DNA of 64,000 nt from Candidatus Bathyarchaeota archaeon (GCA_963717465.1 OY970340.1:296366-360365); one strand, 5' to 3'. Counted from the stretch's first letter, positions 35,419 to 39,133 are shown. The notes: generated by a model not told the origin, from the sequence alone. Translations and numbers: made by a program.

Positions 35419-35809
35419 CTAACTATTTTTTAGCCAATATACTTGTTTCAACCCGCGTTATCTCTAATTTAACGATAAAAAGCAAAACAGGCTTCAAATA
35501 GCAAGAAAGTTAACAGGCGTTTAAACTCAAAAAAATGCTAAAATTCATGTTTTCTACACCCATGACCCAATTCGCGAAGTTTCCCTGAAACTTAAGCCAA
35601 ACAACATTTTAGAAACCATGAGTTTTAAAGACTTTTTCTGAATTTCCAATAGTTATATGAGGGATATGTTTATATTGAAATCCATTGATATAACCGTACA
35701 TTTCTAATTCGAAAAACACGTGGAAACGTTAATTCTGAAACTCTGGACATTTTATTAATAACGAAGGTAAGCTCTTTTGCATAAAAGTCACTTCAGTAAA
35801 TAAAAGTAG

Positions 35810-36010
35810 ATGTTAGTTGAATTGACCTTGTTTTAGTCCAAGCGAACACAAAAACTAGCAGGAGAGGGGGGACACTGGAACGCATTCCGCTTGGATTAAA
35901 AGTCAATTCAACCAACATTTTTTGTAAGCGATATACAATATCAATTTAACATTATTTTTTATAAAAATATGTGACTGTCTTTAAACTACTACTTATGCTT
36001 GTTAGCTAAA
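35810..36010 (-). repeat. promoter plus long fold-back hairpin element, copy 1
   Basis: Arms 35810-35844 and 35888-35918 are complementary; followed by a conserved TATA module; homologous to 38949-39133. Confidence 0.8.
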
Positions 36011-36146
36011 TTTGATTGAACTGATATTCTTTCTACTCTTCAAATTCTTCACTATTTGGGTTTCTGAAGAGAGAGTAGCATAATAGTAATTGCGGTTGAC
36101 AAGCGTAACTCGCAAAATAAAAAAGTCAGGGGTGTTTAAATAATAT

Positions 36147-36557
36147 ATGGAAGTTATGAAAAAAGGGTTTTCAACTTCTATGGAGGGAGAGACGCTCAAA
36201 AACACTGACTTCAGATGTGTCCTCTACACGGGAAAGTACAGTCAACTTGTCTTGATGTGTCTGCAACCAAACGAAGAAATTGGAATGGAAACACATGATT
36301 CAGTTGATCAATTCTTCAGATTCGAAAAAGGCGAAGGAAAAGTGGTCATTGATAAAACCGAGTACAAGGTCAAAGATGGCGATGCAGTAATTGTTCCATC
36401 AGGTGCACAGCACAATGTAATAAATACTTCAAAAAAGCGAAAACTAAAACTCTACACAATCTATTCGCCACCAGAACACGTAGACAAGACAATTCGACAC
36501 ACTAAAGCCGATGCAGAAGCTAAACCAGAAGAGTACGATGGAAAGGCAACAGAATAG
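36147..36557 (+). CDS. cupin domain protein
   Basis: IGMETHDSVDQFF, VPSGAQHNV, LYTIYSPPEH. Confidence 0.9.
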   Translation: MEVMKKGFSTSMEGETLKNTDFRCVLYTGKYSQLVLMCLQPNEEIGMETHDSVDQFFRFEKGEGKVVIDKTEYKVKDGDAVIVPSGAQHNVINTSKKRKLKLYTIYSPPEHVDKTIRHTKADAEAKPEEYDGKATE

Positions 36558-36616
36558 GCTCTTCTCACTTTTCTAGAAATAAGAAATAGTAGAACTGCTT
36601 ACTTGTTCAATCCTTT

Positions 36617-36940
36617 TTAGTCCTCAATGTCTTTCATTGTTTCTCTTAATGCCCCAAAGGTTTCCTGAACTGTTCGATTGTCAAGCATGTCTGTGTTCAA
36701 GTCTATCGCTTTATTATTTCTCAAAAAATTATCTGTTATGAAGTCAAGTACAACCCTAACAAAAAGCTTCCACAGTTTAGACATTTGCATATTGTAGATT
36801 TCATCATTTGTAAAACCTTCTTCACTTATTCTGCCTAACAATTCATTTCCTATATCGATTTCTAAGAAGCCTTGCTTTTTCGTTTCATCCAAGAACTCTC
36901 TGAAAGTCATATTATAAACGTTCTTGCTTGAACTAGACAT
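36617..36940 (-). CDS. hypothetical protein
   Basis: 107-aa ORF; no motif recognised. Confidence 0.55.
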   Translation of the reverse strand: MSSSSKNVYNMTFREFLDETKKQGFLEIDIGNELLGRISEEGFTNDEIYNMQMSKLWKLFVRVVLDFITDNFLRNNKAIDLNTDMLDNRTVQETFGALRETMKDIED

Positions 36941-37020
36941 GTTATATTTGTTTGTTGGGTTGCTTTTTTAATAATTATTGCATGCCAAAATGGATGCACA
37001 TTCTTAGATGAGCTTTCCAT

Positions 37021-38871
37021 TCACTTGGCAGGCAAACGTAAGGTGAAAGTTGTCCCTTTACCCTCTTGACTATCAAAAGATACGGTGCCATTTAATGCTT
37101 CAGTCATACGCTTAACCACTGGCAAACCAAAACCTTGCCCCTTCGCTTTAGTCGTAAACATTGGTGTAAACAATTTATTCTTGATTTCTTTAGGAATACC
37201 AACACCTGTATCCTTAACACTTATAACAAAATAGTTTTCATCTTTGTAAGCGTGTATTGTCAGACTACCCCCATTGGGCATAGCTTGAACAGCATTATTC
37301 ACTAAATTGTACATAATACGGTTAATGAAAGTAGAGTCGGCTACAATGCTCCGAGCGTCAGGTTCAACATTAATGCTGACTTTAATATTCTCAGGCGCAC
37401 TTGTCTTTGATAGCAACTCTTCAATTATGCCTTTAATGTCAGCTTTTTCAATAGAGGGGTTAAGTGGTTTAGAGTAGTCTTGAAGATCGGCTACAATTTT
37501 ATTAATATAATCAATATTCCTCTCAATTTCCTGAATGCTCTCCAAGGAATTCTTTTTCTGATCACTTTCCAAAGTTAATTCCAATTCTGATTTAAGCAAG
37601 TATAAATCACCAGTAATAGCCTGCAATGGATTACGTATATCATGACCTACCATGCCTGCAGTAGCACCAATAGCTGCTAAGCGCTCGGCATCTTTCAACT
37701 GCTTGGTGCGTTCATCAACAAGCCTTTCCAAGTGATCACGGTATTTCTCAAGCTGCTCTTCAGTTTTCTTGCGTTCGGTAATATTTAGCACATACATACG
37801 TATGCGCTGAGCTTTTGGCACGTTGAAGCAGTGCTGAAGGTACCAGTCATCGCCGATTTTTACCTCACTAACAAAAGTGTTCGCGGTCTTCTCTCGAAAT
37901 AATTTAACCATCCTTTTCCAGTCGGCAAACAATGGATGCTTTAAACCCAATGCTTTAAGGTTAGCAAATTTGGCTTTTGCCGTAGGATTAGCATATTCGA
38001 CTTTGCCCTCAAAATCTACTTCAATAACAGGGTTAGGGTTAAGTATTGGAAATGAAGCTAATCTTTTAACTTCTTCTTCAGCTTTCTTGCGTTCTGTAAT
38101 GTTTCTTGTTATTCCTCGCCAACCCAGTAGTCTACCTTTAGCATCAAAGAAGGGAACACCATTAATCTCAACAAAAATCAATCGTCCCTTACTATCATAA
38201 GATGGCACTTCTAAACCATTAAATGGCTTAGGATTATCGTTCAATTTATTAAATAATAAAAGCATTTCTTCTTTTACTGAATCGGGCATTCTAATAAACA
38301 CTGTCTTACCAATAATATTCTGAGGTTTAATTCCCCATAACTTTTCTATTTGAGGACTACAATAGGTAAAGAGTCCCTTATTATCCGCTTCCCAAATTAA
38401 GTCACTTGTAGTTTCGATTAAATCCTGATATTTCTCTTTACTTTCTTTGAGGGCTATTTCTGCTTTCTTGTCTTTTGTAATATCCTTGAATATTACTGCA
38501 AACCAGTTTTCCTCTTTTAGAGGTAGAACTGTTGCTCCAAGCCATTTATCCATACTTATTGAGTATGTCTCAAAACTGACAGCGTTTCCTGATTTAACAG
38601 CCTTTTCATAATTTGATAAGTACTCTTTACTTGCTAATTCAGGTGTGAACTCTGTTACTTTTTTGTCTAATACATTGCGTCTTGTTAAGTTTAATATTTG
38701 CTCAAAGAGTTTATTATAACCATGAAGGATGTAATCGATGGCTTCTTCTTTATCATTAAAGGCAAGCTCACAGACCTGAACACCTTCACCTAAGGATTCT
38801 AAAAGTTTAAGGCAATTATCAAAACTATTTTGGAAGATATCTTTGATTTGTTTTTCTTCCATAAATCCCAA
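37021..38871 (-). CDS. multi-PAS sensor histidine kinase
   Basis: PAS units, GHDIRNPL, NLVNNAVQAM, DTGVGI, GQGFGL. Confidence 0.92.
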   Translation of the reverse strand: MGFMEEKQIKDIFQNSFDNCLKLLESLGEGVQVCELAFNDKEEAIDYILHGYNKLFEQILNLTRRNVLDKKVTEFTPELASKEYLSNYEKAVKSGNAVSFETYSISMDKWLGATVLPLKEENWFAVIFKDITKDKKAEIALKESKEKYQDLIETTSDLIWEADNKGLFTYCSPQIEKLWGIKPQNIIGKTVFIRMPDSVKEEMLLLFNKLNDNPKPFNGLEVPSYDSKGRLIFVEINGVPFFDAKGRLLGWRGITRNITERKKAEEEVKRLASFPILNPNPVIEVDFEGKVEYANPTAKAKFANLKALGLKHPLFADWKRMVKLFREKTANTFVSEVKIGDDWYLQHCFNVPKAQRIRMYVLNITERKKTEEQLEKYRDHLERLVDERTKQLKDAERLAAIGATAGMVGHDIRNPLQAITGDLYLLKSELELTLESDQKKNSLESIQEIERNIDYINKIVADLQDYSKPLNPSIEKADIKGIIEELLSKTSAPENIKVSINVEPDARSIVADSTFINRIMYNLVNNAVQAMPNGGSLTIHAYKDENYFVISVKDTGVGIPKEIKNKLFTPMFTTKAKGQGFGLPVVKRMTEALNGTVSFDSQEGKGTTFTLRLPAK

Positions 38872-38948
38872 TAATTAATTAATTCTGTTTAGGTATTTTA
38901 TTTTTTAGGTTTAATCTAGTTAATATCTTTATAGAGCCACAAGTAGAG

Positions 38949-39133
38949 ATGGTTTGAATTGACCATGTTTTAATCCAAGAGAAAATAAAAATAAGTGGTA
39001 GAGAGGGAATGGAGATTTTTTCCGCTTGGACTAAATGTTAATTCAACCAACATTTTTTTGTAAGGGATATGCATGATCATTTGTAACATTATTTTTTAAT
39101 AAGAATATGTGACTGCCTTCAAACTACTACTTA
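38949..39133 (-). repeat. promoter plus long fold-back hairpin element, copy 2
   Basis: Homologous to 35810-35995; arms 38949-38981 and 39023-39053. Confidence 0.8.

Follow-up and report, generated by a model that had tools for sequence, protein, structure and literature searches.

A predicted family of structured RNAs in one genus of Bathyarchaeia, with two paralogous members in a single genomic stretch

The Bathyarchaeia are abundant, almost uncultured archaea of sediments and peat, and in the literature on their non-coding RNAs (ncRNAs) we found no described small RNA (sRNA) or regulatory RNA. The closest described systems belong to other lineages. The CiaR-dependent csRNAs of streptococci, LhrC1-5 of Listeria and the staphylococcal RsaE are bacterial sRNAs with C/U-rich anti-Shine-Dalgarno loops, and sRNA41 of Methanosarcina mazei is an archaeal intergenic sRNA with CU-rich loops thought to mask ribosome-binding sites. 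Here we describe two fold-back units in a stretch of 64,000 nucleotides (nt) from Candidatus Bathyarchaeota archaeon (GCA_963717465.1, OY970340.1:296366-360365), referred to as the window and numbered from its first letter; the genome is a single contig of 3.05 Mb with 40% G+C. Genes for ribosomal protein S8e, DnaG, Nop5 and Cdc6 were seen, in keeping with an archaeon. An initial annotation had seen in these units either a hidden toxin-like peptide or an undescribed archaeal structured-RNA module. Comparative analysis bears out the latter and indicates that the units are paralogous members of an undescribed structured RNA family, found here in one archaeal genus alone, with compensatory base changes, a conserved promoter of its own and no match in Rfam.

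The two units, copy 1 (35804-35995) and copy 2 (38941-39133), are both read on the minus strand and share 80.1% identity over 196 alignment columns (BLAST, E = 3.5e-39). This is far above chance, and the homology proposed in the initial annotation is thus confirmed. The same applies to the layout it had given for the minus strand: each unit has an upstream box, a T/A-rich TATA-like tract, a leader of ~30 nt and an ATG (35918 in copy 1, 39053 in copy 2) at the base of a long inverted repeat (~115 nt). The parts of the two units are as follows.

35955-35995, minus strand: promoter module of copy 1, with the core CAGTCACATA at 35977-35968 and, behind it, a T/A-rich TATA-like tract (repeat family D3)
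35923-35954, minus strand: leader of copy 1, which joins the TATA tract to the hairpin; transcription would be expected to start within it
35803-35922, minus strand: predicted structured RNA of copy 1, with a long three-part stem, a loop of ~39 nt holding a CU-rich tract and U5, and the tail CUACUUUU
35793-35918, minus strand: open reading frame (ORF) of 41 amino acids (aa) in copy 1, judged a chance open frame and not a gene
39093-39133, minus strand: promoter module of copy 2, with the core CAGTCACATA at 39115-39106
38940-39057, minus strand: predicted structured RNA of copy 2, matched by the covariance model R2 (see below), with a weaker stem (-21.8 kcal/mol) and a 3' T-run of only T2

The unit of copy 1 (35790-35995) folds at -50.5 kcal/mol (z = -4.8, dinucleotide shuffles), and its opposite strand folds almost equally well (z = -3.5).

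When 120 genomes of the family were searched by BLAST with the unit of 206 nt, only the own genome and one chance match of 31 nt came up. The homologs are too diverged for BLAST, and they were found by covariance models alone. A first model (R1), made from four close copies in the own genome, gave weaker matches there and in 9 of 60 congeneric genomes, with stem sequences that were quite different yet complementary, and with loops, 3' tails and upstream regions like those of the window copies. A second model (R2) was made from 12 members, excluding the window copies and their close paralogs. It nevertheless matched copy 1 with 93.2 bits on the minus strand (E = 3e-18, such E-values being rough by the tool's own statement) vs 34.1 bits on the plus strand, and copy 2 with 91.0 vs 25.4 bits. 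R2 identified eight full members in the own genome, spread over its 3.05 Mb, and had matches (E <= 1e-3) in 82 of the 119 other genomes of the genus, with 1-7 per genome. The genus-wide total is more than 170 matches in 83 of 120 genomes, including the own genome.

As a control for specificity, R2 was run on 145 genomes from 69 other genera of the family and gave 0 matches, so the model does not fire at random in such DNA. Rfam 15 gave no match (E <= 1), either to the window region or to six further members. Scans with exact patterns in genome contigs and in metagenome contigs returned one match in Vibrio and one in an unrelated metagenome; on inspection both were chance matches and were discarded.

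Covariation, which the initial annotation had named as a check, was scored for the 27 pairs of the model structure in an alignment of 37 family members (A5). Compensatory base pairing, the criterion for a structured ncRNA, was found in this alignment, which is itself fitted to the model. Standard pairs occupy 91.7% of the cells vs 66.3 +/- 1.0 in shuffles and 31-43% when the partners are slid, and 25 of the 27 pairs show changes on both sides. There are 268 cells with double changes vs 82 +/- 9 in the shuffles, and the covariation score was reached by none of 500 shuffles; the fit to the model structure and the relatedness of the members bear on these figures, but the margins are large nonetheless. 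When folded alone, 31 of the 37 members form one long hairpin, with a median z of -4.9 (mononucleotide shuffles). The four close copies by themselves (RNAalifold, 27 pairs) show no compensatory change and are too close to be informative.

The whole hairpin is about 100-115 nt long and has an interrupted stem of ~45 bp. By eye the stem has three helical parts: an outer helix of ~13 bp, an inner helix of 6-8 bp and, between these two, a short helix, frequently with GUUAAC on either arm. The internal loops that separate them keep their positions. The foot of the stem reads GUU...AAC. Neither a bulge-helix-bulge nor a K-turn could be recognized by eye in the internal loops, which are roughly symmetric (about 2x4 and 3x3 nt) and have no sheared G.A pairs. 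One stem pair within AAUCC/GGACU (in copy 1 about 35897 with 35832) is A.C in copies 1 and 3 of the close set and G.U in copies 2 and 4, and is never Watson-Crick; other variants are shared among the close copies in differing combinations.

The stem varies among the members, while the loop sequence is kept. The apical loop has a median length of 38 nt and holds a CU tract of at least 8 nt in 33 of the 37 members, typically CUCUCCUCUCUCUUCC, which is followed by an A-rich part, a U-run and AG; the U-run has at least five residues in 27 members. Most apical loops (e.g., L021:1541-1578) thereby read as a polypyrimidine tract followed by UUUUUAG, like a eukaryotic 3' splice site or an Sm site. This likeness is probably a coincidence, though it may hint at a protein that binds U-rich RNA. 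The 3' tail, CUCUACUUUU with the consensus (A)AACUCUACUUU, is likewise conserved and together with the next bases contains a T-run of at least four in 32 of 37 members, copy 2 being among three members with just T2. Archaeal RNA polymerase stops at oligo-T, and the U-run of the tail is a likely stop signal.

In 25 of the 37 members the hairpin is preceded, at a distance of 52-68 nt, by a box of the form GT(C/A)AC(A/C)(T/A), mostly as CAGTCACATA followed by TTCTTTTATTTT, and related variants are seen by eye in most of the remaining members. The leader of copy 1 is homologous by eye to those of other members through the motif TTGATAT.GTAT..CG, and many leaders, again by eye, hold a small stem-loop, GCG-UAUGAAACC-CGC or UGCG-CAAGAAAACC-CGCA. 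The tRNA genes of this genome have promoters of the AAAGTTTTTAT type without the box, which is therefore not the general promoter of this genome. The exact 10-mer CAGTCACATA occurs 18 times in the genome vs ~6 expected (sites include G000:C1:171907, 789349, 1499482, 2124422, 2632615, 2699572 and 2891938), often with a TGTTG-type element ~15 nt upstream. It also precedes protein genes in the same orientation, namely the ORFs 39303-39782 and 40754-40954 of the window and a gene at genome position 2699572. Box and T-rich TATA tract might mark a candidate regulon or, alternatively, the site of an alternative initiation factor.

Several features point to the minus strand of the window as the sense strand: the promoter has one orientation and a fixed distance, loop and tail are asymmetric and conserved, a T-run closes the 3' end, and G.U/U.G cells outnumber A.C/C.A cells in A5 (69 vs 32, somewhat biased by the model fit). 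We are fairly confident that the element represents a family of transcribed structured RNAs.

The initial annotation had proposed a search for more copies, and with BLAST and the covariance models the own genome yielded six more full hairpins and two fragments. Four close copies, ~80% alike, can be set apart together with the two fragments. The third copy (genome 1650757-1650871) arose by segmental duplication of copy 2 together with the beginning of the histidine kinase gene behind it, and has 79.7% identity to window positions 38671-39060 over 419 columns (BLAST). At this copy the duplicated kinase frame (L003, G000:C1:1650467-1650877) stops after ~26 codons, and this 5' end appears to be a gene fragment. 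The fourth copy (genome 1545339-1545452) ends 7 nt before an ORF of 110 aa, of which the N-terminus resembles a Rieske-type ferredoxin (by eye only). The 3' half of an element is found as a fragment at genome 2637762-2637847. A further member of the own genome, 779546-779671, was also found independently via its promoter box.

Around the two window copies lie other pieces of the same material, and the stretch of 35.5-41.2 kb is a patchwork of decaying duplicates:

35700-35792, minus strand: decayed remnant of a zinc-ribbon gene, 3' of copy 1 (repeat family D12, translations and alignment A6)
37021-38871, minus strand: PAS/HisKA/HATPase histidine kinase gene (Pfam), downstream of copy 2 and outside the RNA family as such
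39906-39946, minus strand: promoter module copy 3, without a hairpin after it, upstream of a SnoaL-like ORF of 159 aa (39303-39782)
40966-41064, minus strand: promoter module copy 4 (41024-41064) with an RNA remnant, upstream of a zinc-ribbon ORF of 66 aa (40754-40954)

Both promoter modules noted in the initial annotation are thus real, but the window holds four (further ones at 39906-39946 and 41024-41064). Of the RNA behind promoter copy 4, the outer 3' arm and a stretch resembling the tail are all that is left, the hairpin being deleted relative to copy 1 (A6). The same small zinc-ribbon ORF follows promoter copies 1 and 4: it is intact at copy 4, where the hairpin is deleted, and decayed at copy 1, where the hairpin is intact. 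The remnant reads ..LPSLLIKCPEFQN before its stop, and the intact ORF reads ..LPSLLIKCRECKALVD.. The statement that copy 1 has no obvious downstream gene consequently needs correction, as a decayed copy of the 66-aa ORF 40754-40954 follows it. The end of a zinc-ribbon gene (..CGGRFS or ..KFS, then stop) stands before each of promoter copies 1, 3 and 4, and copy 2 and the third hairpin copy have the kinase gene start in common.

The close copies carry pieces of flanking genes and therefore spread by segmental duplication; patchy sharing of variants among them (by eye) suggests recombination or exchange. The window copies are thus a recently multiplied sub-family that spread with its flanks by segmental duplication and recombination. 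A double zinc-ribbon gene on the minus strand at 41066-41240, reading ..CGKPVGGFSYCPKCN..ECPMCGGRFS before its end, has an in-frame stop and is for this reason probably a pseudogene. Zinc-ribbon paralogs elsewhere in the genome (2634424-2634588, 2345192-2345367 and 364728-364769) have neither promoter nor RNA module behind them.

Across the family the genes downstream of the element are unrelated (kinase, 110-aa ORF, Nop5, dnaG, arginine decarboxylase and others). Three members (L024, L039 and L045) face a convergent ORF within 61-120 nt, and in others the sole ORF within about 700 nt is convergent. No consistent co-directional downstream gene or gene class, as would be expected of a leader or riboswitch, could be identified across the members. 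In 16 of the 37 loci the element lies ~140-230 nt from a divergent gene of ~240-306 aa, in which a weak ParB N-terminal domain was found in six of six cases scanned. Six of these parB-like loci have a Toprim ORF downstream in the same direction, and both ORFs checked are archaeal DnaG (NCBIfam); in the own genome this position is held by the member 779546-779671. A conserved location in different species is also seen for other paralogs, e.g., upstream of Nop5 in two genomes. Such conserved positions are expected of old chromosomal genes and not of a hopping element.

In some of the parB-like/dnaG loci (L031, L032 and others) the dnaG ORFs begin at position 20-82 of the NCBIfam DnaG model, and some genomes have a separate ORF of 72-75 aa in the gap of 200-600 nt before dnaG; the N-terminal part of dnaG may lie in another frame or be mis-started. 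In a single case (L043, G261:C2:1429139-1429245) the distance between a member and a divergent cdc6/orc1 gene is 179 nt, and an origin might be expected at such a place. A replication origin or parS site, brought to mind by the cdc6, parB-like and dnaG neighbours, was considered and rejected, as variable stems misfit sequence-specific boxes. With regard to the source organism, short contigs identical to the window at 39264-39400 and 38119-38327 occur in two peat metagenome runs from 2019. No RNA run was found among the sequencing runs that share words with this DNA, and two peat DNA runs contain 5-7% of the words sampled. The contigs of these two are mainly conserved kinase domains from other organisms, along with a few short identical pieces, and none lies over either element. 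It would seem that peat harbours this organism or a very close strain at low depth.

The initial annotation had placed a small hydrophobic peptide in each unit, with its start hidden as in type I toxin mRNAs. The 41-aa ORF is present in copy 1 (35793-35918) as it was quoted, and copy 2 does depart from this frame at its T6 run (39016-39021; A6 on the minus strand), to end as a different ORF of 39 aa (38970-39089). The frame is also broken in the third copy, i.e., in two of the four close copies. The fourth copy stays in the phase of copy 1, with TTG for ATG, as its loop length differs by 6 nt, and one of three other close copies in phase is what chance predicts. The differences between the copies had been described as conservative and synonymous. 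By eye this applies to several differences in the 5' arm, which are synonymous in the copy 1 frame, but those read by eye in the 3' arm are all nonsynonymous and the position of the stop varies. Among the 37 members the frame is open for at least 35 codons in 11, an ATG stands at the copy 1 position in 6, and both are found in 2, and the peptides read out from different members show little resemblance.

No conserved short ORF with its start, frame and stop, as is typical of type I toxins, is therefore seen in the close copies or across the 37 members. Neither could an opposing promoter module for an antisense antitoxin be seen by eye, and no antisense RNA gene is evident. It is thus highly improbable that the unit encodes a hydrophobic type I toxin-like peptide of ~40 aa with its start codon sequestered in the long hairpin, even though the ORF of copy 1 begins at the stem foot, the fourth copy shares its phase and some 5'-arm changes are silent. 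Pairs that change on both sides in 25 of 27 cases speak for pairing and not for a frame, and the hydrophobicity would follow from T-rich sequence. The ORF is judged to be a chance open frame and not a gene, which could avert false calls of small toxins or membrane peptides in this and related genomes.

On balance the window units are probably paralogous genes of an undescribed family of small structured ncRNAs, encoded as stand-alone sRNA genes. The special promoter, a CAGTCACATA-type box directly before a T-rich TATA tract, would be followed by a leader of ~20-30 nt, the hairpin and the tail CUCUACUUUU, giving an RNA of ~145-160 nt from the minus strand of the window as an independent unit. 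The stem, which evolves freely but stays paired, might then serve as a scaffold that presents the loop, and the loop (CU-rich, A-rich, U5-6, AG) would be the working part. It could pair with purine-rich Shine-Dalgarno regions of mRNAs and lower their translation, and the copies would be sibling sRNAs under one regulator that recognizes the promoter box. Copy 2, having lost its U-run, may also feed transcription into the kinase gene.

The proposed role of the loop comes from its resemblance to the 3' end of the own 16S rRNA (..GGAUCACCUCCU, also given as ..CACCUCCU), which contains CCUCCU. The loops repeat UCUCC, CUCCU and CCUCU, and the complementary words GGAGA, AGGAG, GAGGA and GGAGG show a 3.4-4.1-fold enrichment directly before start codons. 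Shine-Dalgarno masking was deduced from this likeness, and that the loop acts as an anti-Shine-Dalgarno element, masking ribosome-binding sites, is the best-fitting model but a tentative proposal by analogy, which we would sooner doubt than accept. Equally speculative is a wider picture in which these RNAs might represent the first riboregulator family of the Bathyarchaeia, with 1-8 sibling sRNAs per genome, one box-driven regulon that includes protein genes, a CU loop that silences Shine-Dalgarno-led mRNAs, and a founder fixed between a parB-like gene and dnaG.

A number of observations weigh against stand-alone sRNA genes of this kind. Transcription of the RNA is predicted from indirect signs (promoter orientation and distance, T-run and G.U excess), and the fit of A5 favours G.U over A.C among members that are related, so that both the ratio of 69:32 and the shuffle counts overstate independence. 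The sense strand has the lower folding energy in 19 of 37 members (p = 0.51), and the wobble counts in the four close copies are 10 for sense and 8 for antisense. The T5-6 of the loop is at least as good an archaeal stop as the T4 of the tail; transcripts could therefore end in the loop, which would leave the 3' arm unexplained, and a stop there could mean two isoforms or a conditional stop. The anti-Shine-Dalgarno idea is a matter of composition only, as any CU-rich tract matches Shine-Dalgarno-like purine runs, and the restriction to one genus with 1-8 copies per genome also fits a selfish or recently spreading element.

The nearest alternative keeps the RNA family but lets the loop dock and sequester a protein, i.e., an Sm-like, termination or processing factor. 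Archaeal Sm-like proteins prefer U-rich RNA, and DnaG in archaea is an exosome-associated RNA-binding protein. A loop that is kept while the stems vary, its purine-flanked run of U5-6 in 27 of 37 members, which is like an Sm site, and the core copy upstream of dnaG would all suit such a role. The neighbouring genes differ among the paralogs, however, and the protein partner is hypothetical, which makes this reading rather unlikely. The element might instead be a cis-acting 5' leader, an attenuator or thermosensor for the gene behind it (the kinase or, formerly, the zinc-ribbon gene). Copy 2, which the initial annotation placed in the leader of the histidine kinase gene, lies ~70 nt upstream of the ORF and has lost its tail T-run. 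Its weaker stem and the reduction of the T-run to T2 make read-through toward the kinase gene conceivable, promoter copy 4 directly drives a small ORF with only an RNA remnant between, the fourth copy ends 7 nt before the 110-aa ORF, the core copy is co-directional with dnaG, and the loop T5-6 could act as a conditional stop. Yet an attenuator is unlikely as the general role, since many members have a convergent or no nearby co-directional gene and 32 of 37 end in a T-run of at least four. An A/T-rich tract ~40-50 nt before the kinase ATG could be the TATA box of the kinase itself, nearer to its start, and a common ligand or signal for such different downstream genes is hard to imagine. We therefore regard a leader function as unlikely for the family.

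A palindrome that works as DNA, be it a fold-back element resembling a miniature inverted-repeat transposable element (MITE), an attC-like recombination site or a replication or priming hairpin, appears quite improbable. It would explain why both strands fold about equally, the presence of several copies per genome along with fragments and one deleted copy, the patchy sharing of variants, and neighbours such as dnaG, the ParB_N protein and once cdc6. In MITEs the terminal repeats are preserved and the interior varies, and the elements described here do the opposite, with variable stems and a kept loop. Homology between the copies runs ~75 nt past the 5' arm and ~12 nt past the 3' arm, which leaves the inverted repeat in an internal position, and target-site duplications, which the initial annotation had named as the sign of a MITE, could not be seen by eye at the four close copies. 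Neither terminal repeats that bound the element nor conserved arms around a variable interior were thus found. The spread with flanking gene pieces is that of segmental duplication, paralogs are syntenic across species, and the promoter at fixed distance, the asymmetric loop, the tail, the kept asymmetric internal loops and the preference for G.U over A.C (69 vs 32) argue for one strand being read. With regard to attC sites, the eight copies are dispersed and not arrayed behind cassettes, have their own promoter boxes and housekeeping flanks (no integrase search was made), and their foot is GUU...AAC and not RYYYAAC...GTTRRRY. The features of C/D and H/ACA guide sRNAs are missing as well: there is no Rfam match, no C/D boxes are seen by eye in A5, and just 5 of 37 members have ACA within the final 10 nt of the match.

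Seen as a computational find, the family has an unusually clear definition, and it is ready for an Rfam-type description and for tests with metatranscriptomes. The shared box marks a candidate regulon that includes protein genes, and the RNA may thereby give a handle on a transcription factor or an alternative initiation factor.

The type I toxin mRNAs (hok/sok and tisB/istR) resemble copy 1 in the short hydrophobic ORF with its start in a long-range helix; unlike in these systems the ORF is not conserved, and loop and tail are conserved instead of the frame. MITE or fold-back elements and attC sites share the imperfect palindrome of ~115 bp in several copies and, for attC, the conservation of structure over sequence, but differ in that the repeat here is not terminal, the loop and not the arms is conserved, the promoter is fixed and the copies are dispersed and syntenic. 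The M. mazei sRNA41 is likewise an archaeal intergenic sRNA with CU-rich loops; it belongs to another lineage, has no detectable homology to the present family, and is single-copy without a shared special promoter. The csRNA, LhrC and RsaE systems are alike in having several paralogous genes per genome, a shared promoter box of the regulator type, a stem-loop scaffold, a 16S-like pyrimidine loop and a U-run at the end. Those RNAs are bacterial, about 90-150 nt long, with two to three short hairpins and Rho-independent terminators, and there is no homology to them in sequence or structure. The Bathyarchaeal family has instead one interrupted stem of ~45 bp, a loop of ~38 nt and an archaeal TATA-type promoter, and its targets and regulator are hypothetical.

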